Source: an uncultured virus (IMG/VR IMGVR_UViG_3300042890_006716) (taxonomy: Duplodnaviria; Heunggongvirae; Uroviricota; Caudoviricetes). From it: 64,000 nucleotides of DNA. The stretch lies in the IMG/VR virus record IMGVR_UViG_3300042890_006716, one strand, 5' to 3'. The position numbers and the translations under genes are program-made. Below are positions 8,535 to 55,676 of the stretch, in pieces (positions within the stretch are counted from its first letter, which is position 1; every line of letters begins with the position of its first letter). Below the pieces are notes generated by a model. It was not told the DNA's origin. It worked only from the letters and a program-made list of their open reading frames with translations, and ran no database searches.

Positions 8535-8744
8535 ATGAACGATTTACGACCACAAATTAGTCTTAAAGACGCAGAAACAATTAAATGTGATGCCTGCGAA
8601 AATGAAACCTTCCAAGAAGTCCTCTCTTTCAAGAAAGTGAGTAAACTACTTACAGGTTCGGCAAACGATTCTATCGTACCCTTCCCAATCTACAAGTGTG
8701 ATGCTTGTGGACATATAAATCCTGAATTTGCAATGCCAGAATGA
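8535..8744 (+). CDS. Small zinc-ribbon protein
   Basis: CDAC...CDACGH. Confidence 0.7.
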   Translation: MNDLRPQISLKDAETIKCDACENETFQEVLSFKKVSKLLTGSANDSIVPFPIYKCDACGHINPEFAMPE

Positions 8745-10416: not shown

Positions 10417-10423
10417 AAAAAAT

Positions 10424-10759
10424 ATGTTGTTATTAACTTGGTTACTTTTGGCTTATGGATTTAGTCAAATTTTAGTTTTCGGAAGTATCTTCAGCGGTTT
10501 GCGTGAAGGAATTCATAAATGGGGAGGTAATGATTATGCTCCGTTCCAATTCATTGGGAAATTCTTGTCAGGTTTGATTGCTTGTATGATGTGTACTAGC
10601 ACTTGGGTGGGATTCTTCTTGGGATTGACTATCTTCTCTCCAATTAACGCCTTTTTTATGACACCAATTAAAATCTCTTGGTTCTTTGATGGACTATTAG
10701 CTTCAGGTGGTGTTTGGGCAATTAACTCCATTGTAGAATGGTTTGAACACAGAAATTAA
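10424..10759 (+). CDS. DUF1360-like membrane protein
   Basis: Hydrophobic helices with CMMCTSTWVG. Confidence 0.6.
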   Translation: MLLLTWLLLAYGFSQILVFGSIFSGLREGIHKWGGNDYAPFQFIGKFLSGLIACMMCTSTWVGFFLGLTIFSPINAFFMTPIKISWFFDGLLASGGVWAINSIVEWFEHRN

Positions 10760-10764
10760 TTAAA

Positions 10765-10971
10765 ATGGGAAAAAAAGCAAAAGAACATCGTAAAAAGGTT
10801 GCTGCTCGCAACCAACAAATTAAAGCGGCTCAGAACGCTTATCAAAAAATGATGAACGAGCAAATGCAAAAGTATTTAGCTGACTTGAGAGAAAACGCTC
10901 TTAAACAACAAGAACAAGAAGGTGACGTACAAAATAGCGGAACCACAGGATTCAGCGGAATTCAAGGATAA
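10765..10971 (+). CDS. Hypothetical basic protein
   Basis: ORF coupled to the Rad50-like gene (TAATG overlap). Confidence 0.65.
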   Translation: MGKKAKEHRKKVAARNQQIKAAQNAYQKMMNEQMQKYLADLRENALKQQEQEGDVQNSGTTGFSGIQG

Positions 10972-13343
10972 TGGACTTATTCAACCCACCAAAATTATTT
11001 GATTACAAAAATATGCCTAAAAAAATTAAAATAGAAGAATACGAAAATCCATACGTACAAGTTATATGGGAAGATACGCCCGAGAACTTTACTCAAGAAA
11101 GAATTAAAAGTGTTAAACAATACTTCACTAAAAAGTATAACACAACCAACGTTAACGTTATTACAAAGAGTAAACAATCTGAAGAAGTTACTCAAACAGT
11201 TGACGTGTCTTTCAATATTATGGATAAGAACTACCAACGAGAACTTATTAAAAGTATGTTGGAGTCTAAAGGTTCTATGGATTTGTATGACTCAATAATT
11301 TCTATTGATGGTGCGGTTGATAATAAATTGTTGGTTGAAGATGTTGAACTAACACCATTCAAAAAATGGTTCATTAAGAAAATACATTTTTCAAACTTTC
11401 TAAGTTATGGGGACAATCAAGTTTTGGATTTTGAAAAATGTAATGGTATTACGGTTGTGGAATCAGACCCACCAAACTTTGGTGGTAAGACAGTATTAAC
11501 TGTAGATTTATTGATGTTTTTGTTTTTCAACACAACATCCAAAACTCAAAAGGCTGAAGAAATCTTTAACAGGTTCCGAGATTCTAATAAAGTTTCTGTA
11601 AGAGGTGAAATTGTTATTGACGGTGATGAATACATTGTTAGTCGTAACATTGAAAGAAAAAAAGCAAAGTCTGGTGATTGGAATGTTAAAACAGAATTGG
11701 ACTTCTTGAAAAAATTACCTGATGGTAGTTATCAAAATTTTACTGGTGAACAACGTAGAGAGACTGAAAAGTTTATCAAAAATTCTATTGGTGAAATGGA
11801 TGATTTCTTGATGACAATTTTAACAACCTCTAGTAATCTTGAAGAACTTATTGATTCCAAACCAACTGCTCGTGGACAAGTGTTATCAAGATTTATGGGA
11901 CTTGAGTTTCTAAAAAGAAAAGAAGAAGCTGCCAAGGAGATTTACAGTGAATTTTCAAAAGGTATGTTGTCTAACGTTTACAATTCAGAGACTTTAAAGC
12001 AAGAGATTACCACATCACAGGAACAAATTATAACTGTTAAACAAAGTGATGAAAATCTTGAGAAAGAGTTAAAAGATGTTAGTGACCGTTTATCAAGAGG
12101 TCAAGAATATAAAGATGGTTTATTAAATGCCAAATTTAGTGACATTGACCAAGAATTGTTATCATTAAACCCACTATCACTTAAAAGTGAGATATCAAAT
12201 GTTGAGGGTGAATGTGAAAAAATAGAACAACAAATAAAGTCAGTTGTTGTTAAAGAACCGACTCAATATTATCACGAGGATAAACACGATGTGGTTAGAC
12301 GTGAGATTAGTGACGTTAATATTCAAATTGCTCAGATTGAGATTCAAATTGAAGGGTTGGAGAAATTAAAGTCTGAGGTTTCAGGTGGCATAAAGTGTGA
12401 GCACTGTGGGATTGAATTAATGAACGCTGCAATTACACAGGCAAAAATCGCCGAGCTTGACGGATTTATCGTGCAAAAAGACGAGAAATTGAAGTTAATG
12501 CAGGATTTAACCGTCAAAGAACAAGGATTCACACAACTTAAAAAAGAGTTTGACGAATATGAGAAGAATAAACTTATTCGTGAAAAGTATGAGGTTTCTC
12601 TCGAGGCAACAAAGTTGAAACTTGAAAGAGTTAAGGACAAACTAAGAAGATATGAGGAGTCTCAAGAAAAAATTAAAAAGAACCAGGAACTTGAAGCTCA
12701 GATTTTAAAGGCACAACTTCGTATTGATGAACTTATAAATCAAAAAAGAGGATTTGAGAGACAACAAGTACAAAACGCGAATCAAATTCAAAACTTTGAA
12801 GATAAAATTAGTAAGAATACAGATTTGATTACTAAAATTGGACAAGAGTTTGAACGTGAAAAGGTCTATAAATTGTATTTGGAGTTGTATGGTAAGAATG
12901 GTATTTCTAAAATTATTATGAAGACTATGATGCCTGTCATCAACCAAGAATTACAAAGACTTTTACAAGACTCTTGTTATTTCAACCTTGAAATTAGAAT
13001 TAATGATAAGAATGAGGTTGAGTTCATTATGATTGATAATTCTACTGGAGTTGAAAAACTTATGGCTTCTGGTTCAGGGTATGAGAGAACAATTGCAAGT
13101 ATGGCACTTCGTTCAGTCTTAAGTAAGATATGTTCACTACCAAAACCAAATGTTATTGTTTGGGATGAGGTATTCGGTAAAATCTCCAATGAGAATCTGG
13201 AATTAGTTGGTGAGTTCTTTTCTAAGATTAAAGATTACTTTGAAAAGATATTTGTTATCACACACAATCCTTTAGTGTCCAACTGGGCTGACAATATCGT
13301 TAAGATTAAAAAGGATGATAACGTATCAAATGTTATACAATAG
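10971..13343 (+). CDS. Rad50/SbcC (gp46-like) SMC ATPase
   Basis: NFLSYG, variant Walker A NFGGKT, coiled coil with CEHC zinc hook, SGYE signature, IVWDE Walker B, ITH. Confidence 0.9.
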   Translation: MDLFNPPKLFDYKNMPKKIKIEEYENPYVQVIWEDTPENFTQERIKSVKQYFTKKYNTTNVNVITKSKQSEEVTQTVDVSFNIMDKNYQRELIKSMLESKGSMDLYDSIISIDGAVDNKLLVEDVELTPFKKWFIKKIHFSNFLSYGDNQVLDFEKCNGITVVESDPPNFGGKTVLTVDLLMFLFFNTTSKTQKAEEIFNRFRDSNKVSVRGEIVIDGDEYIVSRNIERKKAKSGDWNVKTELDFLKKLPDGSYQNFTGEQRRETEKFIKNSIGEMDDFLMTILTTSSNLEELIDSKPTARGQVLSRFMGLEFLKRKEEAAKEIYSEFSKGMLSNVYNSETLKQEITTSQEQIITVKQSDENLEKELKDVSDRLSRGQEYKDGLLNAKFSDIDQELLSLNPLSLKSEISNVEGECEKIEQQIKSVVVKEPTQYYHEDKHDVVRREISDVNIQIAQIEIQIEGLEKLKSEVSGGIKCEHCGIELMNAAITQAKIAELDGFIVQKDEKLKLMQDLTVKEQGFTQLKKEFDEYEKNKLIREKYEVSLEATKLKLERVKDKLRRYEESQEKIKKNQELEAQILKAQLRIDELINQKRGFERQQVQNANQIQNFEDKISKNTDLITKIGQEFEREKVYKLYLELYGKNGISKIIMKTMMPVINQELQRLLQDSCYFNLEIRINDKNEVEFIMIDNSTGVEKLMASGSGYERTIASMALRSVLSKICSLPKPNVIVWDEVFGKISNENLELVGEFFSKIKDYFEKIFVITHNPLVSNWADNIVKIKKDDNVSNVIQ

Positions 13344-13392
13344 GTTGGTTATTTAGAAATTAAGTTGTATCTTAGCATTATAATTTTAATCT

Positions 13393-13935
13393 ATGACAAA
13401 GTACAACTTAATTATCTCTTTTAAGGACTTTAACGACAAACACAAAAACGATATTATTATGGTGGTATCACCAGTCGTTGGGTCTGAAAATTTTTCTTAT
13501 CTTTACAATTCAGGTTTGTTTTTTTTTCATTTCAAGAGTGAAATGACTAAAGATGAGATTAAATCATATGTTCACGATGCTTTTTACGGTAACATATATG
13601 GAATTTTTGTCAGTGAAACTGACAATATGTCAGTCTTTTTACCTGATGATGACGAAAAGTGGTTTTTTAACATCGATAATCCAAATTCGGAACTAAATTT
13701 GTCATCTGTTAATATGACGAATGTTAAGAATGGAACGGAAGGGTTTTCAATATTAGAATTTCTTGAAAATGAAGATGACGATGATGATGAAGACGACATT
13801 ATTGATATCATTCGTCGCTCAAAAAACAAAATCAAGATACCTACATTAGACGACCTTTTAGAAAAAATATACGACCAAGGACTTGAAACACTAACAGAAG
13901 AAGAACAACAAATTTTAAAAACCTACATTAAGTGA
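13393..13935 (+). CDS. Hypothetical protein with acidic tract and DUF6576-like C-terminus
   Basis: C-terminal LDDLLEKIYDQGLETLTEEEQQIL. Confidence 0.6.
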   Translation: MTKYNLIISFKDFNDKHKNDIIMVVSPVVGSENFSYLYNSGLFFFHFKSEMTKDEIKSYVHDAFYGNIYGIFVSETDNMSVFLPDDDEKWFFNIDNPNSELNLSSVNMTNVKNGTEGFSILEFLENEDDDDDEDDIIDIIRRSKNKIKIPTLDDLLEKIYDQGLETLTEEEQQILKTYIK

Positions 13936-14741
13936 GACATATGAAAGACAAAAATTTAAGTATCCCTATTAATCAAGAAGAGATTGCAACTTATCTTAAA
14001 GATATTCGTAAGATAAAAGTTATGACACCTGATAGAGAAAAACAACTCGCTCAGAGAATGTTATCGGATGATTTGACGTTAACAGAGAAACGTCAAATTG
14101 AACAAGAATTGTTAACAGGTAATCTCCGATTTGTAATTACTGTTGCCAAACAATACCAAAATCAAGGATTAGAACTTTGTGACCTAATTGCTGAAGGTAA
14201 TCTTGGATTACTTAAAGCTGTTGAAAATTTCGATTGGTCCAAACAGCTAAGGTTTATTTCATATGCGGTTTGGTGGGTAAGACAATCAATCCTACAATCA
14301 CTTAACGAGAATGCGAGAACTATTCGTCTTCCTGTGAATGTTGTTCAAGAACTTCAAAAGGCTAAAAAAGAACTTGAGAAGAGTGGGGTTGAGTTACCCG
14401 AAAAGTTTGTAACCCTTCCTTATACGGTTAATTATGATAATCCCCTCAATGAAGATGGTGATACTTTGTTGGATGTTTTGAGTAATCCTGATGCTTTGGC
14501 ACCTGACTCCGGATTTCATACAAAAGACATCCTTAAAGACAAGTTGAAAGGTATCTTAGAAGTTTTAGATGACCGTGAAAAAATTATCATTGAAGATTAC
14601 TACGGATTGTCAGGAAATACCCGTACACTTGAAGATATTGGTAATGACTTCCAATTAACTAAGGAACGTGTTAGACAAATTAAAGAGAAGGCTTTACGTA
14701 AGTTGCGTAATGAGTCTAGTGAACTTTTTGATTATCTATAA
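13932..14741 (+). CDS. RNA polymerase sigma-70 factor (Bacteroidota RpoD-like)
   Basis: Region 1.2 YLKDI; region 2 NLRFVITVAKQYQNQG and RFISYAVWWVRQSI; region 4 TLEDIG..LTKERVRQIKEKALRKLR. True start may be the ATG at 13941. Confidence 0.92.
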   Translation: MRHMKDKNLSIPINQEEIATYLKDIRKIKVMTPDREKQLAQRMLSDDLTLTEKRQIEQELLTGNLRFVITVAKQYQNQGLELCDLIAEGNLGLLKAVENFDWSKQLRFISYAVWWVRQSILQSLNENARTIRLPVNVVQELQKAKKELEKSGVELPEKFVTLPYTVNYDNPLNEDGDTLLDVLSNPDALAPDSGFHTKDILKDKLKGILEVLDDREKIIIEDYYGLSGNTRTLEDIGNDFQLTKERVRQIKEKALRKLRNESSELFDYL

Positions 14742-25445: not shown

Positions 25446-26780
25446 ATGAAGTTCGCAAACGTACTTAAGAAAATCATATTGGAACAATCAAGACTTGAAG
25501 TTTTGATGGATAAGTTTGTATTACCTAAAAAAGATAAAGAAGGTAAACCTTTAAAGGCTCCATTGAGCAAACAAGAGTTCTTCGAATTAATCCAAGCCGA
25601 CCCAACATCTCGTTTAAATGATGTTGATTTGGAAAGAGCATCAAAAGAGGAATTATCTCGAGTTAAAGTTGGTGAATACACTCCTTGGTTAATTAAGAGT
25701 TATATGAACGTTAAGACTGAAATCCCAAGAGGTGAACAAGGTCACGAGAGAGAAGTTAAAGTTATGAGAGAAAGGTTTATGGAAGACCTTTACAAAGTGA
25801 CTGAGGATTTGACCAAGTTTAAAAGGTTTAAAGGTAAGTTACCTCTTGAAATGAGGGATATCAATAAACTAACACCTGAAGCTTTATACGATGCTGTTAA
25901 GGACTTTGACTTAACTATGGCGACAACAACTAAAGCCGAAAGAAAGGCTGCGCCAGTACACCCTGGTGCTGAATCTGGATTTGAGGGTAAAAATTGGAGA
26001 GTTATTAAGATATCTGATAAAGGAGAAAGAGGTAAAGAAGCCGCTTGTTTTTACGGTGGTAATCAACAAGAGACTCGTTGGTGTACTTCAGCACCTGGTT
26101 TAAGTTACTTCGATAGATACATTAAAGACGGACCTTTGTATGTTATCTATAATCCAAATGATACTAATGTATCTCCAACAACAGGATTACCAAAAGAAAG
26201 ATACCAATTCCATTTCCAATCAAATCAGTTTATGGATAAGGATGACCGTAGTGTTAATTTAATTGAGTATTTGAACGGTCCTATGGCAGAACTTAAAGAT
26301 TACTTCAAACCTGAATTTGCTAAAGGTTTAACACACCAAGGTAAAGAATTGGTTATTGATAACTTTGAGTCTGGTTCTGTAGGTAAGTTTATTGGGTTGT
26401 ATGGTTTGGATGAGTTATTTGATTCATTACCTGACGACATACACAAAATTAATATCTCAACTAGAAACACTAGAACACCAATTACATTTAGAATTCCTGA
26501 TACAATTTCAAGATTCACAAACTTAGATAGGCTTACATTTGATGGGTGTATAACTAGTGTTCCTGATGCGATATGTGAACTTAAAAAATTAGCATATTTT
26601 GCAGTTCTAAATTGTCCTGAGGTTAAGTCAATACCTGCGTGTGTTGCCACTTTACCTGAGATTATGATTATGAATATTATGGGTTCAAATAATATAGTAT
26701 TACCTAAGGAAATCACTGATGTGGCATTCGAGGTTGGTCCAGGTCTATATGACTTCACAGAGTTAGAAGGAAGAAGATAA
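25446..26780 (+). CDS. TRWCT-domain protein with C-terminal leucine-rich repeats
   Basis: ACFYGG...TRWCTSAPG; LRR-like units IPDTISRFTNLDRL, VPDAICELKKLAYF, IPACVATLPEIMIM. Confidence 0.7.
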   Translation: MKFANVLKKIILEQSRLEVLMDKFVLPKKDKEGKPLKAPLSKQEFFELIQADPTSRLNDVDLERASKEELSRVKVGEYTPWLIKSYMNVKTEIPRGEQGHEREVKVMRERFMEDLYKVTEDLTKFKRFKGKLPLEMRDINKLTPEALYDAVKDFDLTMATTTKAERKAAPVHPGAESGFEGKNWRVIKISDKGERGKEAACFYGGNQQETRWCTSAPGLSYFDRYIKDGPLYVIYNPNDTNVSPTTGLPKERYQFHFQSNQFMDKDDRSVNLIEYLNGPMAELKDYFKPEFAKGLTHQGKELVIDNFESGSVGKFIGLYGLDELFDSLPDDIHKINISTRNTRTPITFRIPDTISRFTNLDRLTFDGCITSVPDAICELKKLAYFAVLNCPEVKSIPACVATLPEIMIMNIMGSNNIVLPKEITDVAFEVGPGLYDFTELEGRR

Positions 26781-27456: not shown

Positions 27457-27765
27457 ATGGAACAGTTAACGACAGAACAATTGAAAGAAAAAATAAATAA
27501 CAAGGAAAGTTTCCTCTTAGATTTATACGCAACTTGGTGTGGGCCTTGTAAAGTATTGTTATCATCACTTGAGAAAATCACATCTGAGAATGAAACAAAA
27601 ATACCTGTATACAAATACGATATTGACACAGACCACGACTTCGTAAGAACAGAGATGGGAATCAGAGCGGTACCGACTTTAAAACTCTTCAAAAATGGTG
27701 TAGTTGATATGACAAGAACAGGAGTTGTGCCGACACCTGAATTAACTGAAATACTAATGAACTAA
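27457..27765 (+). CDS. trxA: Thioredoxin
   Basis: WCGPC active site; IRAVPT. Confidence 0.9.
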   Translation: MEQLTTEQLKEKINNKESFLLDLYATWCGPCKVLLSSLEKITSENETKIPVYKYDIDTDHDFVRTEMGIRAVPTLKLFKNGVVDMTRTGVVPTPELTEILMN

Positions 27766-28046
27766 TGAGTAAAACAATTATTGTTTATACAATGAAAGGC
27801 TGTCCTCATTGTACTGACTTCAAAGAGATGTTAGTCAAAGAGAACATTGACTTCGTTGATAGAGACATTGATGAGTATGAAGAAGAGTATGATATCTTTT
27901 CACAATTAACAGAAAATGATTTTGTACCAGCATTACTCATTATTGAAGAAACTAAAGAAAAAACCATTCCTCATATGTATACTCCTGATAGGGACTATAA
28001 TGAATTAACTGAAGCTGTTGATATAATCAAAAAACATATTATTTAA
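27765..28046 (+). CDS. Glutaredoxin-like protein
   Basis: YTMKGCPHC; FVP. Confidence 0.85.
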   Translation: MSKTIIVYTMKGCPHCTDFKEMLVKENIDFVDRDIDEYEEEYDIFSQLTENDFVPALLIIEETKEKTIPHMYTPDRDYNELTEAVDIIKKHII

Positions 28047-28107: not shown

Positions 28108-31100
28108 ATGGCAAAAAATATAACAATTGTACCTGGTAATTTAGTCCCGAATCCCGGAAGGATTCCCTATATTGATTTTGAAAATACGGGAACTTTGAGG
28201 TTAGAGGTCAGACCTTATGGTGCTGGTACTTCTATAAAGTGGGGTTCTACATTATTAATGTCATCGGGTGGTATCCAAGCGTATGATGATATTAATATCA
28301 TTAATAATCTAACTATTGGAGGAATTCAAGTATTAAATGGTACAGGTGCTTGGTTAGGACCTGGAACAAATATAACAGGATTCCAAGGTAATCAAGGAGC
28401 TCAAGGAGCCATTGGAAATACGGGTGCTCAGGGTTCACAAGGTTCACAAGGTGGAAAGGGTAATCAAGGAGCTCAAGGTTCAGCAAATGCTCAAGGTTCT
28501 CAAGGACATCCTGGTGCACAAGGAAACGTGGGACCAACAGGTGCTCAGGGTAATCAGGGCGCTCAGGGTAATGTCGGACCAACAGGTAACGGAGGAGCGA
28601 CAGGTGCACAAGGAGCTCAGGGTTCAACAGGACATCCTGGCGCACAAGGTAATGTGGGAGCTCAAGGTTCTCAAGGTAATCAAGGTGCTCAGGGTAATGT
28701 CGGACCAACAGGTAACGGAGGTGCGACAGGTGCTCAAGGAGCTCAGGGTTCAACAGGACATCCTGGTGCACAAGGTAATGTGGGAGCTCAAGGTTCTCAA
28801 GGTAATCAAGGTGCTCAGGGTAATGTCGGACCAACAGGAGCGACAGGGTCACAAGGTTCACAAGGTAATCAGGGAGCACAAGGTAATGTCGGACCAACAG
28901 GTGCAACAGGGTCACAAGGTTCACAAGGTAATCAGGGCGCTCAGGGTAATGTCGGACCAACAGGTAACGGAGGTGCGACAGGAGCACAAGGCGCTCAGGG
29001 TTCAACAGGACATACAGGTGCTCAAGGTAATACTGGTAATACAGGTGCACAAGGAAATCAAGGTTCTCAGGGTAACGTAGGACCAACAGGTAATGCGGGA
29101 GCTACAGGAGCACAAGGTGCTCAGGGTTCAACAGGACACACAGGTGCACAAGGAAACGTGGGGCCAACAGGTGCTCAAGGTAATCAGGGAGCTCAGGGTA
29201 ATGTCGGACCAACAGGTTCAACAGGACCACAAGGAGCACAAGGAGCACAAGGTTCACAAGGTAATGTAGGACCACAAGGGGCTCAAGGGGCTCAAGGGGC
29301 ACAAGGGGCTCAAGGTTCACAAGGTAATGTAGGGCCTACAGGTAATGGTGGGGCAACAGGTGCACAAGGTGCTCAGGGCTCAACAGGACATACAGGTGCA
29401 CAAGGAAACACAGGTAATCAAGGAGCACAAGGTAACACAGGTTTCCAAGGAGCGGTTGGACCAACAGGTAATGGAGGTGCAACAGGAGCTCAAGGAGCAC
29501 AAGGTTCAACAGGACATACAGGAGCCCAAGGAAATACCGGTAACCAAGGAGCTCAAGGTAATACAGGTTCACAAGGAGCCGTTGGACCTACAGGTAACCA
29601 AGGTGCACAAGGAGCACAAGGTGCTCAGGGTTCACAAGGAGCCGTTGGACCTACAGGTAATGTGGGTGCACAAGGAGCACAAGGTGCTCAGGGTTCACAA
29701 GGAGCCGTTGGACCGCAAGGTTCAGGAGGACCACAAGGAGCACAAGGAGCACAAGGTTCACAAGGAGCCGTTGGACCGCAAGGTTCAGGAGGACCACAAG
29801 GAGCACAAGGAGCTCAAGGTTCACAAGGAGCCGTTGGACCTACAGGTAACCAAGGTGCGCAAGGAGCCCAAGGAGCTCAGGGTTCACAAGGAGCCGTTGG
29901 ACCTACAGGTAACCAAGGTGCACAAGGAGCACAAGGTGCTCAGGGTTCACAAGGAGCCGTTGGACCTACAGGTAATGTGGGTGCACAAGGAGCACAAGGT
30001 GCTCAGGGTTCACAAGGGGCTCGAGGTCCACAAGGTTCAGGAGGACCACAAGGAGCACAAGGAGCTCAAGGAACGGTAGGAGTCTTTGGGCCAACAGGTA
30101 ATTCAGGTACAATAGGTGCTCAAGGAGCTCAAGGAGCTCAGGGTTCTCAAGGGGCCGTTGGACCACAAGGGGCTCAAGGAGCTCAAGGTTCTCAAGGTTC
30201 TACAGGATTTCCAGGTTTTGCGGGTCCTGTGGGAGGAGGAGGACCACAAGGGGCTCAAGGAGCTCAAGGTTCACAAGGTAATGTTGGAAATACTGGTGCT
30301 ACAGGAGCTCAAGGTTCTCAAGGAGCGGGTGGAGCAACAGGTCCGGTTGGGCCTACAGGTTCTCAAGGAGCTCAAGGTGCCACAGGTTTTTCAGGTGCAC
30401 AAGGTGATGTTGGAAATACAGGTGCTGGTGGTGGTACCGGTACTTTTGGATTTCAAGGTTCACAAGGAGATGTTGGACCAACAGGTGCAACAGGTGCCAC
30501 AGGTGCACAAGGAAACACAGGATTTCCTGGTGTTCAAGGACCACAAGGAGCTCAAGGAACAGGTCCTGGTCCTATTGGAAATATCGGTGCAACAGGTGCT
30601 CAAGGTTCTCCCGGACCTACAGGTGCTCAAGGAAATGTTGGAACACAAGGAATTGCTGGACTTCCTGGACCACAAGGTGCTACAGGGGCTCAAGGACCAA
30701 CAGGTGCTACTCAAGGTGCTCAAGGACCTCTTGGATTCCAAGGAGCTCAAGGAGCAGGTGGAGGACAAGGTGCACAAGGTGCTCAAGGACCTACACCAAT
30801 TGTACCATCAGGTGCTCAGGGGGCTCAAGGGGGAATAGGGGAACTTAGAGGTGCCGGTCCATTAGGTGCACAAGGAGCACCAGGACCTACAGGTGCAAAA
30901 GGACCACAAGGTGCACAAGGCGCTCAAGGACCACAAGGTGCACAAGGGTTAACACAAGGTGCTCAAGGAGCACCAGGACCTGCAGGTGCCGACGGACTAA
31001 CAGGTGCTACGGGAGCTCAAGGTGATACGGGACCACAAGGTGCTCAGGGTGCTCCTGGAGCGCCAGGACCGGCAGGACCACCATCAGCATCTTGTTTTCA

Positions 31101-31686
31101 ATATTCAGGTTATTATGCGGGTGACCCGGGTAGTGCTTGTTCATTAAACCGCGGATTTTATGGGGACATATACTCGCCAGACGATATTACTACTTGGACT
31201 AACAACACATCTGTGTTTGAAAATGCGACTGACTGTGCAAATCTTAGTTGTGTAACTCCTTTACCTGCTCCCGTATGGTATGACTTATCATCACTTTATT
31301 ACGACCTAGACACAGGAGGTTGTTTAATTATTGGTGTTCCTAATACTTGTCCTTCAGATATTAGTTTAAAACAAGAAATTACTACTATTGAAAACTCGTT
31401 AGAAAGTGTTTTACAATTAAATCCTGTTGAATTTGATTGGAACGAATTAGACCCCAACTATGAGGCAATGAAACGAGATGGTAAACTACACTCGTTTGGT
31501 TTTATTGCACAAGAAGTTAGAAGTGTAATACCAGATATAATTGAATTAAGGGGTGGCGGTTATTATAGTTTAAACTATACCTCACTTAACGCTTATTTAG
31601 TAGAAGCCATAAAAGAGCAACAAGTATTTATTGATGACTTGGATTCTCTATTAACAAATTTAGAAGAAAAGGTTGAAAGAAATTAA
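28108..31686 (+). CDS. Collagen-like (Gly-X-Y) fibre protein 1 with Cys-rich domain and S74-type intramolecular chaperone
   Basis: About 900 aa of G-X-Y; C-terminal [10 protein letters not shown]...FDW...GFIAQEV. Confidence 0.9.
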
Positions 31687-34600
31687 TATATGGCAGACGT
31701 AATAATATATCCAAGTGGAACTACAGGAAACTCATCGCCTCATATAGTATACGAGGGGGCGTCTGCTGCGGATAGTATCCAAATTAATATGGTTGCACCG
31801 GGTGATGTCAAATTTTCTGCAACAACAAGTCCATCATTAGTAGTTTTCAGTAATAATGACATAACAACTACAGGTGTTACAATATCAAGTTCACCATCAG
31901 GTTTATGGGTTGGTGGTCAAAATATGATTAATAATGCCGGTGTATGGATTGGACCACAAACAACTATTAAAGGTGCTCAAGGAGCTCAAGGAAATGTTGG
32001 GGCACAAGGAACAACGGGAGCTCAAGGTGGGGGTGGTAGTACAGGAGCTCAAGGAGCACAAGGTAGTACTGGTGCTCAAGGAGCAGTAGGAGCACAAGGT
32101 GCTCAAGGAGCGTCTCAAGGGGCGCAAGGAACAACAGGGGCACAAGGTGCTCAAGGTATTGCAGGTGCTCAAGGTGGTGTCCAAGGAAATCAGGGAGCAC
32201 AAGGTGCTCAAGGAGCCGTTGGTTCACAAGGAGCTCAAGGAGGTTCACAAGGTGCTCAAGGTACGACAGGTGCTCAAGGTGCTCAAGGTAGTACAGGTGC
32301 TCAAGGTGGGACACAAGGAGGACAAGGAGCCCAAGGTGCTCAGGGAGCCGTTGGTTCACAAGGTGCTCAAGGAGGTTCACAAGGTGCTCAAGGTACGACA
32401 GGGGCACAAGGTGCTCAAGGTAGTACAGGTGCTCAAGGAGGAACACAAGGAGCGACAGGAGCCACAGGTGCCCAAGGTGCCCAAGGTAGTACGGGCGCTC
32501 AAGGAGGAACGCAAGGAGCGACAGGGGCGACAGGAGCTCAAGGTGCTCAAGGGACAACAGGTGCTCAAGGTGGTGTCCAAGGAAATCAGGGAGCACAAGG
32601 TGCTCAAGGAGCCGTTGGTTCACAAGGAGCTCAAGGTGCATCACAAGGTGCTCAAGGTGCTCAAGGTACGACAGGTGCCCAAGGACCTACGGGAGCTCAA
32701 GGTGGTGTCCAAGGAAATCAGGGAGCACAAGGTGCTCAAGGAGCCGTTGGTTCACAAGGTGCACAAGGTGCTTCTCAGGGTGCTCAGGGTACGACAGGTG
32801 CTCAAGGAGCTCAAGGTAGTACGGGAGCTCAAGGAGGTGTCCAAGGGGCAACAGGTGCGACAGGTGCCACAGGAGCACAAGGACCTACAGGTGCTCAAGG
32901 TGGAGTTCAGGGGGCAACAGGTGCCGCTGGTACAACAGGTGCACAAGGACCTACAGGAGCACAAGGTGGAGTTCAGGGAAATCAGGGAGCACAGGGTGCA
33001 CAAGGAGCCGTTGGTTCACAAGGAGCTCAAGGGGCTTCTCAAGGGGCTCAAGGTGCTCAAGGTACAACAGGTGCCCAAGGACCTACAGGAGCACAAGGTG
33101 GAGTTCAGGGAAATCAGGGAGCACAAGGTGCTCAAGGAGCCGTTGGTTCACAAGGAGCACAAGGAGCTTCTCAAGGAGCTCAAGGTGCTCAAGGTACAAC
33201 AGGTGCCCAAGGACCAACAGGTGCACAAGGAGGACCTCAAGGGGCTCAAGGTGCTAATGGAACAACAGGTGCACAAGGGCCAACAGGTGCTCAAGGTGGA
33301 GTTCAGGGGGCAACGGGTGCTAATGGAACAACAGGTGCACAAGGACCTACAGGTGCTCAAGGTGGAGTTCAGGGTGCAACAGGGGCCACAGGAGCTACAG
33401 GAGCTCAAGGACCAACAGGTGCTCAAGGTGGAGTTCAGGGTGCGACGGGAGCCACAGGAGCTACAGGAGCTCAAGGACCTGTTGGTGCACAAGGAGGACC
33501 TCAAGGGGCTACAGGAGCCACAGGTGCAACAGGGGCTCAAGGACCAACAGGTGCTCAAGGAGGAACGCAAGGAGCGACAGGTGCCACAGGTGCGACAGGA
33601 GCTCAAGGACCAACAGGTTCTCAAGGAGGTGTACAAGGAGGACAAGGTGCTCAAGGAGCCCAAGGTGCTCAAGGACCAACAGGTGCACAGGGAGGACCAA
33701 CAGGTGCACAGGGTGCTCAAGGTGGACAAGGAGCCCAAGGTGCTCAGGGAAATCCAGGAGGACCTCAAGGTGCTCAAGGGGCACAAGGTGCGACTGGACA
33801 AACAGGTGCTGTTGGTAATCAAGGTGCTCAAGGAGCGGTCCAAGGAGCAACAGGCTCTACAGGACCAACAGGAGCTCAAGGTGCTCAAGGACCACAAGGT
33901 ACTCCGCAAGGGGCTCCAGGTGCTACAGGTGCTACAGGTGCTCAAGGACCTGTTGGTGCACAAGGAGGACCTCAAGGGGCTCAGGGTGCTACAGGTGCTA
34001 CAGGACCTCAGGGATTCCAAGGTGCTACAGGAGGTACTCAAGGTGCAACAGGTGCTACAGGAGCTCAAGGAGCCCAAGGTCCGATAGGGGCTCAAGGAGG
34101 TCCTCAAGGAGCTCAAGGAGCAAAAGGACCTCAAGGCCCACAAGGAGCCACAGGTGCTCAAGGAGGTACCCAAGGAGCTCAGGGTGCCACAGGAGCAACA
34201 GGTTCACAAGGACCACAAGGGAATCCGAGTGTTACACAAGGTGCTCAAGGACCCGCTGGAGCTCAAGGTTCTCAAGGGTCTCAAGGAGCGACAGGTCCTA
34301 CAGGAGGTCCAGGTCCTACAGGTGCTCAAGGTGCGGGAGGAACAAAAGGACCTGCGGGTGCGACACAGGGGGCTCAAGGTGCTGCAGGTCAGACAGGAGG
34401 ACAAGGTGTACAAGGGTCAAGAGGACCTCAAGGACCAACAGGAGCTCAAGGACCATCGGGACCAAAAGGTGCTACAGGTGCAACAGGAAAGGCCGGAACT
34501 CAGGGTTCCACAGGAGCACAAGGTGCTCAAGGAGGAAAAGGAGCTGCAGGGGCACAAGGAGCACAAGGCGCTCAAGGAGCTGTTACAGGTGGGACAGGTC

Positions 34601-37600
34601 CACAAGGAGTCCAAGGAGCTCAAGGTGCAACAGGACCTGCAGGAGGTACTGGTTCTCAAGGAGCTCAAGGTGCTAGTGTTACAGGACCACAAGGTGCTCA
34701 AGGTGCTCAAGGTAATGCTGGTAAAACGGGACCACAAGGAGCACAAGGTGCTCAAGGACCTCAAGGGCCACCTTCAGATAGAAGATTGAAAGAAAACATC
34801 AAGAAATTTGATAGAGCTATTGATGTTGTTAATATGAATGGTGTATCTTTTGATTGGGTTGAAAATATACCACAACTTTCATTGTATAAAGACAATGAAA
34901 AGTATTTACTTAAAAAACGAAGTATAGGTTTTATCGCCCAACAAGTTGAAAAATATTTTCCTGAAATTGTTTGGGAAGATAAGTTTGGTTATAAATCTTT
35001 ACAGTATGAACTACTTGTTACTCTTGGAGTATCTTTTGTAAAAGAAAATCAAAAAAGAATGGATGTCCTTAAAACATCATTAACTGAATTAGAAGAAAAA
35101 TTACGTGGCTGAGAATATAATAATAGTACCTGCAAGTATAACAATACAATTTTATGATTCGGGGAATACTCGAAGTGATTTGGTATATTCTAGTTCTACA
35201 TTGAATTATGTTGTAAATCAAACAACAACATATCTAAAAATTGCCAAGACAGCACCTATATTCCAAGTACAAAATACAAATTTAAGTGCTAATACAGTTA
35301 CAAACAATTACGGATTAATAATAGACTCTACCGGATGGAAAGGTAATGTAAATGCTGGACCACAAGGCGCTCAAGGTAATCAAGGTGCCCAAGGAGGACA
35401 AGGTGCTCAGGGTAATACTGGTAACCAAGGTGCTCAAGGAGCGGTTGGTAGTCAAGGAGCCCAAGGAGCTCAAGGTTCCCAAGGAGCAACAGGAGGGCAA
35501 GGTTCACAAGGCGCACAAGGAGCTCAAGGGGCAACAGGTAACCAAGGGGCTCAAGGAGGACAAGGTGCTCAAGGTGCTCAAGGCGCCCAAGGTGGAAAAG
35601 GTAATCAAGGCGCTCAAGGTGGACAAGGAGCTCAAGGAGCTCAAGGTTCACAAGGAGCGGTTGGTAACCAAGGTGCCCAAGGAGGACAAGGAGCTCAAGG
35701 AGCTCAAGGCGCTCAAGGTGGAAAAGGTAATCAAGGTGCTCAAGGTGGACAAGGTGCTCAAGGAGCTCAAGGTTCACAAGGAGCGGTTGGTAACCAAGGC
35801 GCCCAAGGAGGACAAGGAGCTCAAGGAGCTCAAGGTTCACAAGGAGCGGTTGGTAACCAAGGTGCACAAGGTGGACAGGGAGCTCAAGGAGCTCAAGGGG
35901 CTCAGGGTGCGACAGGTAATCAGGGTGCTCAAGGTGGACAAGGGGCCCAAGGAGCACAAGGTGCTCAAGGTGGAAAGGGTAACCAAGGTGCCCAAGGTGG
36001 ACAAGGAGCCCAAGGAGCACAAGGTGCTCAAGGTGCAACAGGAACACAGGGTGCTCAAGGTGGACAAGGAGCCCAAGGAGCACAAGGTGCTCAAGGTGGA
36101 AAGGGTAACCAAGGTGCCCAAGGTGGACAAGGAGCCCAAGGAGCACAAGGTGCTCAAGGTGCAACAGGAACACAGGGTGCTCAAGGTGGACAAGGAGCCC
36201 AAGGAGCACAAGGGGCTCAAGGAGCAACAGGAACACAGGGTGCTCAAGGTGGACAAGGTTTCCAAGGAGCTCAAGGTGCTCAAGGTGCAACGGGAACACA
36301 AGGTGCTCAAGGAGGACAAGGTGCTCAAGGAGCACAAGGGGCTCAAGGTGCTCAAGGTGGACAAGGAGCGCAAGGTGGACAAGGAGCGCAAGGGGCTCAA
36401 GGTTCACAAGGGGCAGTTGGTAACCAAGGTGCTCAAGGTGGTCAAGGAGCCCAAGGGGCGCAAGGAGCTCAAGGGGCTAAAGGTAATCAGGGAGCCCAAG
36501 GTGGACAAGGAGCACAAGGGGCTCAAGGTTCACAAGGGGCAGTTGGTAACCAAGGTGCTCAAGGTGGTCAAGGAGCTCAAGGAGCTCAAGGAGCGCAAGG
36601 AGCGACAGCAACTCAGGGTGCTCAGGGTGGACAGGGAGCACAAGGAGCTCAAGGTGCACAAGGAGCGACAGGAACCCAAGGGGCTCAAGGAGGTCAAGGT
36701 TTCCAAGGAGCTCAAGGGGCTCAAGGTGCAACAGGAACCCAAGGTGCTCAAGGTTTCCAAGGAGCTCAAGGAGCTCAAGGAGCTCAAGGAGCAACAGGAA
36801 CCCAAGGAGCTCAAGGAGGACAAGGTTTTCAAGGAGCTCAAGGGGCTCAAGGTACAACAGGAACTCAAGGTGCTCAAGGAGGTCAAGGTTTCCAAGGGGC
36901 TCAAGGAGCTCAAGGTGTATCAGGAACTCAAGGTGCTCAAGGAGGACAAGGGGCTCAAGGTTCTCAAGGTTCTGTAGGTATATCAGGTACTCAAGGTGCT
37001 CAAGGAGGACAAGGTTTCCAAGGAGCACAAGGGGCTCAAGGTGCTGTTGGAGTACAAGGTGCACAAGGAGGTCAGGGGGCTCAAGGTTTCCAAGGAGCTC
37101 AAGGTGCTGTTGGTAACCAAGGTGCGCAAGGAGCAACAGGTGGACAAGGAGTCCAAGGAGCAACAGGAGGACAAGGAGCACAAGGAGCTCAAGGCGCAAC
37201 AGGAGGACAGGGAGCACAAGGGGCTCAAGGTGCTCAAGGAGCAACAGGAACTCAAGGGGCTCAAGGAGGACAAGGTTTTCAAGGAGCACAAGGTTTCCAA
37301 GGAGCAATAGGTCCACAAGGAGCGCAAGGTGGGCAGGGAGCTCAAGGTGCTCAAGGTGCCACAGGAGCTCAAGGTCCACAAGGGGCGCAAGGAGGACAAG
37401 GTTTTCAGGGAGCTCAAGGAGGAACAGGTGCTCAAGGGTCTCAAGGAGCAACAGGAGGACAAGGATTCCAAGGAGCGCAAGGTGCTCAAGGGGACGTAGG
37501 TGGAATAGGACCTAATGGTCAGCAGGGATTCCAAGGAGCCACAGGTGCTCAAGGACCTGTTGGAGCTCAAGGAGCTCAAGGTGCAACAGGACCAACAGGA

Positions 37601-38066
37601 CCTCAAGGGGCTCAAGGTTCACAAGGAGCCGTAGGACCTACAGGGGGTCAAGGATTTCAAGGTGCTCAAGGTGCAACAGGACCAACAGGACCTCAAGGTG
37701 CAACAGGACCAACAGGACCTCAAGGTGCTCAAGGTTCAGGTACAGCCGGCGCTCAAGGTGCTCAAGGCGCTCAAGGAAATTCAGGTGCTATTGGAGCTCA
37801 AGGAGCTCAAGGGGCTCAAGGGCCAACGTCTCCTAATGGACCACAAGGTGCACAAGGTGCAACAGGGGCTCAAGGAGCTCAAGGTTCACAAGGTTTTGAG
37901 GGAGCCGTCGGTGCACAAGGACCTACAGGTCTTAAAGGACCAACAGGTGCTCAAGGTTCTGCAACACCAGGTCCAACAGGGGCACAAGGAGCACCAGGGG
38001 CTCAAGGAGGTGCTAGTTCAACATTCGGAGCACAAGGAGCTCAAGGTCCACAAGGACCAACAGGTC
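28378..38066 (+). repeat. Three blocks of coding 9-nt (GGN GCN CAR) repeats with 63/66/126-nt higher-order units
   Basis: ggtgctcaa/ggagcacaa arrays within the three collagen genes; locally GC-rich. Confidence 0.9.
31690..35112 (+). CDS. Collagen-like fibre protein 2 with S74-type chaperone
   Basis: About 930 aa of G-X-Y with regular one-residue insertions; [10 protein letters not shown]...IGFIAQQV. Confidence 0.9.
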
Positions 38067-38389
38067 CTTCAGATGAAAGACTGAAAAAAGATGTTAAACC
38101 TATCGGTGATGCTCTAAATAAGATATTAAGTATTAGAGGTGTCACATTTAAATGGAGAGGTAAAGAATATAGTTCTAATGACAAAAAAGCTATTGGATTT
38201 ATTGCTCAAGAAGTTTTGCCTTATGTTCCTGAAGTTATTTATACTGAAGGTAAAGTGTTAACAATGAATTATAAAGAAATGATTGCCGTTAACATTGAAG
38301 CGTTAAAAGAACAAGAGGTTAGAATAACATCTCTTGAAGAGAGAGCTAAAAAAGTTTTGGATAAAGCTAAACTAAAGGGGATTATTTAA
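35105..38389 (+). CDS. Collagen-like fibre protein 3 with S74-type chaperone
   Basis: GTG start overlapping the previous stop; about 900 aa of [13 protein letters not shown]...IGFIAQEV. Confidence 0.9.
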
Positions 38390-39408
38390 AAATAGTCACC
38401 AAAAAGTTCGTTAATATTTTCTTTTGTTTTTGGCCAATCCGCATAATCAGGCGTGTAATATACCAAACAATTGGCACTACCATAACTAATATTTTCACTC
38501 AAAATACTAAGATAGTCACCATAATTACTTAATGGTTCATTATGATTCTTCGCGTTATTAAGGTAATCGGAAATCTCTGAATCAAAATTATTTATTTTAA
38601 CTTTGAAATAGGTATAAGATTTGTTTGGGTTTACACTACTTGGAACTGTTATCCAATCAGAATGGCGCATATCAAAAAATGTTTCAAGTTCATCCATTAT
38701 ACCACTATACACCTCATCTTCATAAGCATTTGCATATGCTCTGTTATGTAATGAGTGTAAATCTGATTTAATGTTTTCGGTTTCATTCAAAATACTTTCT
38801 GTTGAATCCTCATCATTGAATATTCTGTCGTGAATCAACTCGGGGGTTAAGGTTACATATTCAGGATGACCTTGTTCCTCGGCAATTTCTTCTAACAATT
38901 CTGTTTCAGGTTCTACCTTAACGTCAGATAATTCGTTACTTATTTTTTTTGATAAATAAGTAAGATTATCCTTATTTAGTTCTTGAATAACATCCCTATA
39001 AACATTATCGGTAGTATCCCAAAAATCAAAATCCCATTCACCATCTAGTATCTCTGATATTGTTGATTGAGACATACCATTTCTTCTATCATCACAAAAA
39101 AGATACGCGAGTCTACTTTTATCATTCAAAGTCACATAGTATTCACCATTTTCATAAGTAACATCACTTAATGAAGATAAAACATATTCTCTAAATTTTT
39201 CGGGATTATGTTCTTTAATTGCGAGGGCTATTTTGTTAACTTCATATTCGAATTCTTCTTCGTTGTTAATAAGGTCTAATTCGTGTATCAAACCTTTTTT
39301 ACCAAGATAGTCCAAAAAAGTTTCCATATCACCAAAAAAATCTTTGATAATATCAAATTTACCATTATTAACATCGTCGATTAATCTTTGTAATTTCCCT
39401 GTCATCAC
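38386..39408 (-). CDS. Acidic hypothetical protein
   Basis: 340-aa ORF; TATTTAT immediately upstream on the minus strand. Confidence 0.75.
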
Positions 39409-43136: not shown

Positions 43137-44300
43137 ATGAAAGTTAAATTAGAATATGTGTGGTTGGATGGGTATCAGCCAGAACCTAATCTTAGAAGTA
43201 AGGTTAAGGTGATTGAAAAAGAAGAGACTGGTCTTCAGAATATTCCATATGGGGATATTATAACACTGAAGGATTGCCCTGAGTGGAGTTTTGATGGTTC
43301 ATCAACACAACAAGCTGACGGACATTTTTCTGATTGTATTTTGAAACCTGTTAGAGTTTATCACAACTCACTTAACGAAGGTGGTCTATGGTCTTTCTTG
43401 GTGTTGTGTGAGGTTATGAATCCCGATGGGACTCCACACGTATCAAATACAAGAAGTCTTGTTGGGGAAGAAGAAGAGGACCTTTGGTTTGGTTTTGAAC
43501 AAGAGTATACCATTATGAAAGATGGTAGACCTTTGGGTTTCCCTGAGAATGGATATCCTGAACCACAAGGAAAATACTATTGTGGTGTAGGTAACGGACA
43601 AGTTAACGGTAGAAAATTTGTGGATACTCATATGGAAAATTGTATCTTGGCAGGTATTGAAATTACAGGTACAAACGCCGAGGTCTTATTGGGTCAGTGG
43701 GAGTACCAGGTATTCTCCAAAGGTAAATTAAAGGCCGGTGATGATTTGTGGATGTCGAGATACATTTTACAACAAATGTCTGAGGACTATGGTTTTAAGA
43801 TTGAATTCCACCCTAAACCTGTGATGGGTGATTGGAATGGTTCAGGATTACACTGTAACTTCTCAAATGACAAGATGAGAAATGAAGGTGGTGATGAATA
43901 CTTCAAAAACATCTTTAACGCCTTTGATTCACGTCATCAGTTACACATTAACAATTACGGTTCTGATAACAATCTTCGTTTGACTGGTAAACACGAAACC
44001 CAATCTATTGACAAGTTTAGTTGGGGGGTTGCTGACCGAGGTGCATCAATCAGAGTTCCATTGTCTACATCAAAAGAATGGAAGGGTTATGTTGAAGACC
44101 GTAGACCGGCATCAAATGGTGACCCATATAAAATTGTTGGTATCATATCCGAAACTCTGGACTTTGCATTAACTCTTGATAAGATTATTCATAATATGAA
44201 TACTAAAGTTGATACTCAAAAATCACCACTTAAAGATATTATGGAACAACATCAATTCGAAGAGTCTGAAAATAAAAGTGGTTCAATTTATAACGATTAA
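43137..44300 (+). CDS. glnII: Glutamine synthetase type II
   Basis: LEYVWLDG, WSFDGSST, WFGFEQEY, PQGKYYCGVG, NAEVLLGQWEYQ, DWNGSGLHCNFS, RLTGKHET, EDRRPASNGDPY. Confidence 0.95.
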   Translation: MKVKLEYVWLDGYQPEPNLRSKVKVIEKEETGLQNIPYGDIITLKDCPEWSFDGSSTQQADGHFSDCILKPVRVYHNSLNEGGLWSFLVLCEVMNPDGTPHVSNTRSLVGEEEEDLWFGFEQEYTIMKDGRPLGFPENGYPEPQGKYYCGVGNGQVNGRKFVDTHMENCILAGIEITGTNAEVLLGQWEYQVFSKGKLKAGDDLWMSRYILQQMSEDYGFKIEFHPKPVMGDWNGSGLHCNFSNDKMRNEGGDEYFKNIFNAFDSRHQLHINNYGSDNNLRLTGKHETQSIDKFSWGVADRGASIRVPLSTSKEWKGYVEDRRPASNGDPYKIVGIISETLDFALTLDKIIHNMNTKVDTQKSPLKDIMEQHQFEESENKSGSIYND

Positions 44301-54428: not shown

Positions 54429-55676
54429 ATGAAGACAAAAAAACCGTCAGCAATAGTGTATGGATTAGGTACGGAAGGTGAAACAACCTTAATCTCACAA
54501 ATATACTGGGAAGAACATCTGTTTGATGATGTTGTTGTTTATAATCTACCATATACAAACGATGTCGTTGGTGATTATACAAAATATAAACCTGACTTAA
54601 TTATAAGTTTTGGTGAAGAAGTAAACATCCCACACTATCATTTGAAAAGATTTCACATTCACTATGATGAACCGATTGATGAAGCAATTTTGGCGAACGT
54701 AATTGTTTGTCAGACTGTGTTTAGAAACTGTGAATATTTTAGACCAAGATTTACAATTTTCACACCAACCTACAAAACAGGAGAAAGGATTTATAGGACT
54801 TATGAGTCTTTAAACAACCAAACCTTTGATAATTGGGAATGGGTTGTGGTTGATGATTCGCCTGACCCTGAAACTTGGGAGATGATAACTGAAATTGCGG
54901 AGAAAGACTATCGGGTAAAACCTCACAGGATTTATCCATTATCGGGTGGTAATATTGGTTTGGCTAAACATCGTGCAGCTATGTTAGGTGATGGTGATTG
55001 GTTGATTGAATTGGACCACGATGATTGTTTGGTTACAACTTGTCTTGAAACCGCTAATGATGCAATATTAAAATACCCTGACGCGGGATTTCTTTATACT
55101 GATTGTTCAGAGATATACGAGGACGGTGAACCTAAGTTTTATGACCACGATTGGACTGGTAATTGGTATGCTCGTCACGATAACTATTTTGACTTTGGGT
55201 ATGCTGGACACAGTTGGGTAAATGTTGACGGTGTTGATAGACTTGCTCATTGGTACCCTGATGTAAACCCACTCACAATTAGATTCAATATCACAATGCC
55301 AAACCACGCTAGAATGTGGGAGAGAAGTGTTTATCATAATATTTCAGGACACAATAAATTAACACCTGTTGCTGATGACTTGGAGATTCTTATTCGTACA
55401 TTTTTAGAAACCAAGATGATTCACGTAAAGAAGGTGTTATATCTACAATACAACAATAACAACTCAACAGTTGATAATAATGCAACAGATATTAATCGTA
55501 GGGCCAGATTAATCAGGGACTTCTATGATAAAAGAATACACGACAGAATTGAAGAAATGGGTTATTTTGATTGGAATTGGGATGAGATTACACAACACTC
55601 ACAAAAGTTCCAAAACAGTGTCCCAATCAAAAAATACTATAAACAAGAACAAGTAATGAATTACATTTATGAATAA
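54429..55676 (+). CDS. Glycosyltransferase family 2
   Basis: TIFTPTY, WEWVVVDDS, ELDHDD and ADDLE motifs. Confidence 0.85.
   Translation: MKTKKPSAIVYGLGTEGETTLISQIYWEEHLFDDVVVYNLPYTNDVVGDYTKYKPDLIISFGEEVNIPHYHLKRFHIHYDEPIDEAILANVIVCQTVFRNCEYFRPRFTIFTPTYKTGERIYRTYESLNNQTFDNWEWVVVDDSPDPETWEMITEIAEKDYRVKPHRIYPLSGGNIGLAKHRAAMLGDGDWLIELDHDDCLVTTCLETANDAILKYPDAGFLYTDCSEIYEDGEPKFYDHDWTGNWYARHDNYFDFGYAGHSWVNVDGVDRLAHWYPDVNPLTIRFNITMPNHARMWERSVYHNISGHNKLTPVADDLEILIRTFLETKMIHVKKVLYLQYNNNNSTVDNNATDINRRARLIRDFYDKRIHDRIEEMGYFDWNWDEITQHSQKFQNSVPIKKYYKQEQVMNYIYE

Follow-up and report, generated by a model that had tools for sequence, protein, structure and literature searches.

Known phage fibers and spikes with a C-terminal Peptidase_S74 (hereafter S74) chaperone are homotrimers encoded by single genes, in which the chaperone folds β-helical or globular tips; in S74 structures the tail helices form a parallel three-helix bundle. 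The heterotrimeric collagens of animals, including procollagen I (C-propeptide), collagen IV (NC1) and complement C1q (A/B/C), have their chains chosen by a non-collagenous C-terminal domain. They are built from three genes of equal helix length, nucleate from the C- to the N-terminus and keep interruptions level between the chains, and in procollagen the C-terminal domain is then removed. For phage T5, the chaperone has been described as trimeric and as being cleaved off (PMC4690869). Prokaryotic collagen-like proteins are described as homotrimers (PMC8968730), and collagen motifs in open reading frames (ORFs) for phage tail fibers have long been known, as noted in a report that cites “Bacteriophage collagen”, Science 1998 (PMC4621102). 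Here we analyzed a stretch of 64,000 nucleotides (the window) from an uncultured member of Caudoviricetes (IMG/VR record IMGVR_UViG_3300042890_006716), in which three adjacent genes, g1, g2 and g3 (28108-38389), encode long Gly-X-Y rods ending in an S74 domain. Judged from the sequences, the three products very probably belong to one physical assembly, be it a heterotrimer or a bundle of homotrimers. As to its form, we lean towards an ABC heterotrimeric collagen fiber, which would be nucleated at the S74 end, with g1, g2 and g3 supplying chains A, B and C.

The three collagen genes and their relatives

The genes were called as ORFs, and their parts were assigned with Pfam and, for g1, also with an AlphaFold2 (AF2) model and Foldseek.

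28108-31686, + strand: g1, fiber chain 1, 1192 aa
28108-28377, +: N-domain of g1
28378-31083, +: collagen rod of g1
31084-31353, +: Cys-rich hypervariable tip of g1
31354-31683, +: Peptidase_S74 of g1
31690-35112, + strand: g2, fiber chain 2, 1140 aa
31690-31971, +: N-domain of g2
31972-34773, +: collagen rod of g2
34774-35109, +: Peptidase_S74 of g2
35105-38389, + strand: g3, fiber chain 3, GTG start, 1094 aa
35105-35356, +: N-domain of g3
35357-38071, +: collagen rod of g3
38072-38386, +: Peptidase_S74 of g3

A gap of 3 nt separates g1 from g2, and g2 and g3 overlap by 8 nt. Pfam matched Collagen (PF01391) in g1, g2 and g3 with E-values of 1e-112, 2e-72 and 3e-93, and Peptidase_S74 (PF13884) with E-values of 8e-13, 1e-11 and 1e-15 (bit scores of 48.8, 45.2 and 57.9, where the cut-off is 22). 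The N-domains comprise 90, 94 and 84 aa, respectively. The initial annotation of this DNA had described three abutting genes, each with a short N-domain, a long Gly-X-Y region and a C-terminal S74, and the ORFs and Pfam bear this layout out; it had overlooked the Cys-rich tip of ~90 aa, which is found only in g1, between collagen and S74. The GC content is 46-57% inside the trio compared to ~32% in the flanks, a rise that can be put down to composition, because Gly, Ala and Gln codons would give such values.

The collagen spans of g1, g2 and g3 are 902, 934 and 905 aa long, with 296, 298 and 297 triplets in runs of at least three and unbroken Gly-X-Y runs of up to 230 triplets. Gln makes up 17, 20 and 26% of the residues, and Pro 6.8, 4.9 and 2.5%. 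Autocorrelation of the non-Gly residues gave top lags of 42 and 21 in g1, 44 and 22 in g2, and 42 and 21 in g3. In g2 one residue is inserted per seven triplets (34 insertions), and g3 has one Gly-Gly-X triplet per seven triplets. Lags and insertion count agree with the seven-triplet unit that had been assigned to all three chains, with one extra residue in g2. The rationale given for it, that seven triplets are the repeat of the 7/2 collagen helix, is not supported, and a 7/2-helix stripe was rejected as a general rule: every chain of the orthologous trio L155 repeats after 13 triplets, spaced alternately by 6 and 7, and L161 has a period of 14.

A fold other than the collagen triple helix, for example a polyglycine-II-like or another Gly-rich one, with the lengths matched through some other packing, is very improbable. 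The low imino-acid content (Pro 2.5-6.8%) and the absence of a known structure speak for such a fold; against it stand the strict Gly at every third residue over the long runs, the Collagen E-values down to 1e-112, and a Pro-richer zone that adjoins the S74 domain in the rods, with Pro reaching 21% in g1 of L155.

Via a conserved 444-aa gene near the trio we found 62 related loci (given here as L numbers), and a PF13884 search covered 58 records. Three matches were present in 28 records, one in six and none in 24; the six single matches belong to another gene at another locus. No record had two or four, and the locus itself did not show one, two or four copies of independently varying length, the pattern that had been named as speaking against co-assembly. 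We analyzed 15 of the 28 trio records, leaving out 13 as near-copies with ORF sizes equal to those of an analyzed record; together with the window these make 16 trios. As the initial annotation had suggested might be found, the gene order is conserved, in 16 of 16: the tip-bearing chain, the chain with a C-terminal part of ~113 aa and the GTG-started chain, whose 8-nt overlap with the second gene has L152 as its one exception. In a maximum-likelihood tree of the N and S74 domains of 48 proteins, g1, g2 and g3 each form one clade (support 99/92, 100/98 and 99/99), and the triplication is therefore older than all 16 lineages.

The syntenic backbone consists of the 444-aa gene, thioredoxin, glutaredoxin, the trio where present, and a 340-aa gene on the opposite strand. 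At trio-less loci no trio gene follows glutaredoxin (17 of 17), and the 340-aa gene comes directly next in 15 of 17; the trio behaves as an all-or-none cassette. Six complete genomes carry the trio alone (four), a single long collagen-S74 gene elsewhere (one) or neither (one), so that within this set the giant gene and the trio are mutually exclusive. Giant collagen-S74 genes lie at another locus in trio-less relatives, namely in L156 (1265-6385, - strand; 1706 aa, 409 triplets), L157 (3-7592, - strand; at least 2529 aa, 722 triplets) and L158-L160, and are rich in Gly-Thr-Ser or Gly-Ser-Ser. As a background, broad S74 queries, whose hits were mostly unrelated S74 fibers, gave any collagen ORF in 30 of 157 loci and two or more in seven.

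The Ser and Asp of the S74 cleavage site and the following Lys are invariant in 16 of 16 orthologs of g1 and of g2; in the g3 orthologs the Asp and Lys are invariant, and the Ser lies within the last triplet. Structural similarity search with the AF2 model of the g1 C-terminal region, which has a predicted local distance difference test (pLDDT) score of 70.7, gave 7dc3 as the best Foldseek match (E = 2e-5), followed by weaker matches to 3gw6, 3gud and 4uw8; the last 30 residues of S74 form a long helix in this model. The g1 tip is hypervariable among orthologs except for cysteines at both ends and in the middle, and gave no structural match above noise in Foldseek. The N-domains are homologous across the three chains. 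Their model is all-β and confident (pLDDT 88), without a Foldseek match at an E-value of 1e-3 or better; the best VIA Z is 6.1, and β-helical phage spikes score 5.1-5.7 (phiKZ spike 5.7), below the noise level stated for the tool.

Matched rod lengths and a shared lattice

Rod length was counted in register-corrected triplets, with round(g/3) levels assigned to each break of g residues. The values for g1/g2/g3 in the 16 trios are as follows.

Window: 300/300/302
L149: 306/305/305
L145: 306/302/302
L155: 255/254/253
L154: 195/195/194
L151: 158/158/157
L152: 155/155/154
L153: 154/154/153
L147: 144/143/142
L105: 118/120/118
L148: 179/174/178
L144: 306/295/303
L143 (mismatched): 340/346/276
L150 (mismatched): 131/160/145
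L161 (mismatched): 157/172/170
L146 (mismatched): 149/140/139

Corrected rod length varies between phages from 118 to 346 triplets, and within a trio the rods agree to within 2% in 10 of 16 cases and to within 4% in 12. The lengths of the three genes are correlated with r of 0.97-0.99, and 15 phylogenetically independent contrasts gave r of 0.93-0.95 (p of 1e-7 to 1e-8); the check proposed earlier, whether collagen lengths co-vary in relatives, thus came out in favor of coupling. Corrected triplets agree more tightly than raw residues in 14 of 16 trios, with a median range of 1.4% versus 3.8% (Wilcoxon p = 0.002). The conserved quantity is the number of Gly levels and not simply physical length. 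In some trios g1 also contains non-collagen segments, which lie inside or before the rod in L143 (8250-12752, - strand; one insertion of 135 aa) and L146 (4583-7651, - strand; five inserts of 16-150 aa); in L148, more triplets follow the non-collagen insert of g1.

A scan of metagenome contigs with a glutaredoxin alignment gave 80 loci, 39 of them with collagen ORFs. It added the complete trios L251/L254 (254/253/252), L261 (134/134/105) and L241 (265/300/288), bringing the distinct complete trios to 19, of which 11 match within 2%. Eight loci have only g1 and g2 complete, and five of these pairs match (356/357, 199/197, 216/217, 302/298 and 159/156). A distant trio, L239, is encoded on the - strand; its three genes keep the N-terminal motifs but stand in another order, and its Lys-rich rods have 364/369/370 triplets (1121/1126/1125 residues). 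In L240, an unrelated phage, two adjacent collagen-S74 genes have 493 and 387 triplets; adjacent collagen fiber genes are therefore not always length-matched.

In the window, the repeats of the three chains share one lattice. The g2 insertions fall at levels 16, 23 ... 191, then 199, 206 ... 241, 255 and 279. A Gly-Gly-X of g3 stands at the level of the g2 break in 32 of 36 cases, and Gly-x-Val followed by Gly-Pro in g1 stands one level before this g2/g3 landmark. The lattice slips once, by a single eight-triplet unit:

30070-30168, + strand: eight-triplet unit in g1, levels 189-199
33748-33852, + strand: eight-triplet unit in g2, insertions at levels 191 and 199
37058-37156, + strand: eight-triplet unit in g3, Gly-Gly-X at levels 191 and 199

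Each chain has exactly one such unit, at the same place in all three. The slip is not present in the close relatives L149 and L144, and it therefore arose in the window lineage, in three genes. Coincidence of g2 insertions with g3 Gly-Gly at a constant offset reaches 1.00 in L147, L148 and L154, 0.88 in L145 and L251, 0.87 in L149 and 0.83 in L292; it is weaker in other relatives and fails in L143 (0.20).

Two further trios distribute the anomalies in other ways. In L161 the +1 breaks of g2 (levels 59, 73 ... 143) interleave with the -1 breaks of g3 (levels 52, 66 ... 136) on one seven-triplet lattice. In L155 all 35 lattice breaks lie in g3, and the 255 triplets of g1 and the 254 of g2 run without a break. 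The rule of one length anomaly in one chain at about every seventh triplet is therefore kept per trio and not per gene. The conserved Trp of the N-domain, tried by eye as an anchor, gave no constant lattice offset.

In the last ~60 triplets, which are Pro-richer and non-repetitive, breaks of different chains occur at equal level from the S74 end. Examples, with the break residues of g1/g2/g3, are PT/IQ/AE at level 6 in L152, RL/SAP/PQ at level 17 in L151, QV/NV/Q at level 27 in L149 and AYQ/LS/AVP at level 24 in L161. Across 13 genomes (the near-copies L145, L151 and L153 were left out of this count), inter-chain coincidences of aperiodic breaks numbered 32, compared to a sliding-null mean of 8.4 (sd 4.8, max 20), and 0 of 76 shifts reached 32, although this null also pulls apart the break-rich C-terminal zones and hence overstates the significance. 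At shifts from -3 to +3 the coincidences were 7, 17, 25, 32, 20, 14 and 15; counted from the N-end they were 19 versus 7.8. The window contributes two aperiodic coincidences only. The break residues differ between the chains, and the DNA identity of the arrays is 63-67% between genes versus 70-77% within a gene; on both grounds, gene conversion was rejected as the source of shared breaks or lengths.

Shared lattice, shared slip and co-located breaks favor a physical coupling of the chains in register, beyond matched length, much as had been proposed. Three independent homotrimeric fibers that need equal reach, for example for three receptor specificities or as a hair layer, and make no contact with each other, appear unlikely. 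Length matching by itself needs no contact, and the mismatched trios (6 of 19, including one nearly identical to the window) would be harmless to such fibers. They would, however, leave unexplained the agreement to one or two triplets, the slip and the transfer of breaks between chains, as well as the co-located aperiodic breaks, the chain-specific complementary charges described below, the tip-less g2 and g3 and the all-or-none cassette.

Possible heterotrimer and bundle assemblies

The charges of the tail helices and of some rods differ between the chains. In all 16 trios the S74 tail helix has a net charge of -3 to -6 in g1, +1 to +4 in g2 and -2 to +2 in g3 (means -4.6, +1.9 and -0.2). With heptads assigned from the sequence, the cyclic order g3-g1-g2 gives five favorable g-e' pairs and no repulsive one, whereas homotrimers would bring Arg face to face with Lys in g2 (12 of 16 each) and, in part, Glu with Glu in g1. 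Most rods of the family are nearly uncharged. In L155 the acidic/basic residues number 26/5 in g1, 3/30 in g2 and 5/29 in g3, with the acids at X and the bases at Y positions in the same 6/7 spacing; acids at X together with bases at Y allow inter-chain salt bridges in the geometry of a triple helix.

In the ABC fiber as we picture it, g1, g2 and g3 would be translated jointly, because the genes abut or overlap. The three different S74 domains would associate as a mixed trimer, with the complementary charges of the terminal helices aiding chain choice; this trimer would set the register and nucleate the triple helix, which would then zip up from the C- to the N-terminus, in the manner of a procollagen C-propeptide. 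By analogy with known chaperones, each S74 would then, after trimer folding, cut itself off at its Ser-Asp motif. The rod left behind would measure ~260 nm (300 triplets at 0.86 nm each), with a single Cys-rich hypervariable g1 tip as the likely receptor-binding end and the three paralogous N-domains as the virion anchor. At about every seventh triplet, a one-residue anomaly in one chain would lie opposite the side-chain-free Gly-Gly-X and the Val-Gly-Pro of the other two, where the Gly-Gly-X opposite an insertion would provide room for a looped-out residue.

We favor the heterotrimer because triplets rather than residues match, to within one or two; because each anomaly is confined to a single chain and can pass to another; because the breaks co-evolve from the C-terminal end; because the tail-helix charges suit a mixed trimer; because without it g2 and g3 would form rods that lack a tip; and because the trio and a single collagen-S74 gene replace each other in complete genomes.

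Several points weigh against it. An insertion in a single chain breaks the rule of one Gly per level, and looping out some 34 times is unprecedented; homotrimers would tolerate periodic insertions without this assumption. Only g1 has a tip, which in a heterotrimer becomes a single-copy domain looped out between collagen and S74. The rods mismatch by 7-23% in 6 of the 19 distinct complete trios (L143, L150, L161, L146, L241 and L261), and in three of the eight further g1-g2 pairs (172/159, 248/284 and 134/120). Over 12 kb, L241 (10326-20181) and the window share 99.7% identity, yet the rods of L241 are unequal: compared to 28108-38389 of the window, g1 is 35 triplets and g3 14 triplets shorter, and g2 is the same. 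In L239 the breaks, about 50 per chain, are staggered, and none co-locate at zero shift. Finally, the common phase of the lattice could be an ancestral legacy, because the four-residue element of g2 and the Gly-Gly-Gln of g3 look homologous and duplications keep the phase. Only the shared slip and the patterns of L155 and L161 escape this objection.

In the mismatched cases the lengths differ by nearly integer multiples of the seven-triplet unit. Short-read assembly may have collapsed the repeats, or these may be genuine slippage alleles, perhaps short-lived ones. The unique junctions of the locus are borne out by contigs from four other runs, which end inside the repeats. Contigs from RNA libraries differ by 5-10 letters and give no evidence of transcription.

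Some of these points would be met by three homotrimeric rods packed side by side in axial register, either as a nine-chain bundle or as a fixed set anchored at both ends, an arrangement that we consider less likely. Such a bundle would account equally for the co-variation of length, period and slip, homotrimers would accommodate the periodic +1/-1 breaks with the Gly register intact, and a g1 homotrimer would carry an ordinary trimeric tip. The structural matches 3gw6, 3gud and 4uw8 belong to homotrimeric families, the opposite net charges of the L155 rods could drive lateral association, and the staggered breaks of L239 fit separate rods. Nevertheless, a match to one triplet in up to 300, and by triplets instead of residues, is tighter than the packing of flexible rods should need, and the alternation of the L161 lattice breaks between g2 and g3 is without rationale if each rod consists of one chain type. 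The bundle also sits poorly with the co-evolution of break levels between chains from the S74 end and with the like charges that homotrimeric tail helices of g2, and in part of g1, would bring together, and it would turn g2 and g3 after cleavage into bare rods without a tip.

Genomic setting and comparison with known systems

The window has a low GC content (~32%) and encodes a primase, an SbcCD-like nuclease, a sigma factor and methyltransferases. Contigs of its relatives in the viral collection reach 326 kb, and six are rated complete; the window is therefore part of an uncultured jumbo phage. Its DNA is present in 19 lake-water metagenome runs. The genes that frame the trio are as follows.

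25446-26780: 444-aa gene, conserved in ~60 relatives at 55-66% identity
27457-27765, + strand: thioredoxin (PF00085, E = 5e-20), directly upstream of the trio
27765-28046, + strand: glutaredoxin (PF00462, E = 5e-9), directly upstream of the trio
38386-39408, - strand: conserved 340-aa gene, function not assigned, at the downstream edge of the trio cassette

Thioredoxin and glutaredoxin are counted as context because the pair is syntenic in relatives both with and without the trio; a link to disulfides of the g1 tip is only a thought. The 444-aa gene weakly resembles, at 30% identity (E = 2e-7), a “structural protein” of the Pseudomonas jumbo phage PA5oct, the only hint of possible virion genes nearby. 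At 54429-57931 the window encodes a UDP-galactopyranose mutase (E = 2e-75) and a pair of family-2 glycosyltransferases, one of which has TPR repeats; these enzymes could add sugars to the Thr-rich collagen or to other components of the virion. A SprB-repeat protein is encoded at 648-2639 and a glutamine-synthetase-like gene lies at 43137-44300. SprB repeats, this gene, the glycosyltransferases and the low GC content appear to resemble the description of “moraphages”, aquatic jumbo phages of Bacteroidota with glutamine synthetase and glycosyltransferase genes; collagen is not mentioned in the available portion of that report (PMC12619734). The host is probably a member of Bacteroidota. A search of phage GenBank gave no close cultured relative, record P0003 matching at the S74 domains only (identity of 44% or less), and no megablast match for 5839-14741 of the window. 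The nearest record in the collection, a fragment of 15 kb, lacks an S74 match. No hydroxyproline machinery was seen in the window.

In the literature searched, supplements excepted, we came across no phage or bacterial collagen that is encoded by several genes or assembled as a heterotrimer, nor any set of three collagen genes that co-evolve, and to our knowledge mixed-chain collagens have been held to be an animal invention. We give even odds to the broader claim made by this locus, a natural ABC heterotrimeric collagen outside animals, in which S74 acts as the chain-selecting “propeptide” and a periodic register code migrates between the chains while the lattice is kept. If true, chain selection and register control evolved independently in a virus, by way of a self-removing domain of ~110 aa, and the trio would be a small, naturally occurring set of modules with which engineers, who now have none, could make defined ABC heterotrimers in bacteria, with no need for hydroxyproline. 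The family forms a natural series of matched rods of ~100 to 300 nm, and its periodic single-chain interruptions make a testable system for the tolerance of breaks and the avoidance of slippage in repetitive chains. For phage biology it would mean a fiber whose three genes come and go together as a single cassette.

Compared to the bacterial and phage collagen-like proteins, such as Scl1/Scl2 and BclA, the trio has in common Gly-X-Y rods without hydroxyproline and flanking globular trimerization domains. Among them, AlphaFold3 models of the Clostridioides difficile BclA paralogs are reported to predict no heterotrimers (PMC13188886). With the S74-chaperone fibers and spikes, namely the endosialidase of K1F (3gw6), the appendage of GA-1 (3gud) and the L-shaped fiber protein pb1 of T5 (4uw8), as well as the ICA domain of MyRF (7dc3), it shares a C-terminal PF13884 domain that starts with Ser-Asp ... 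Lys. It differs from the known S74 fibers in having three paralogous S74 domains, which form a co-evolving set with complementary tail charges, and in the direct attachment of S74 to the collagen rods of g2 and g3. Similar to the animal heterotrimers, it comprises three genes of equal helix length, and chain selection and nucleation would likewise take place at the C-terminus. Unlike in animal collagens, the trimerizing domains are of another sequence and fold, the rod is rich in Gln, Ala and Thr, a one-chain length anomaly recurs periodically and the tip sits on one chain only, in a heterotrimer that is itself putative.

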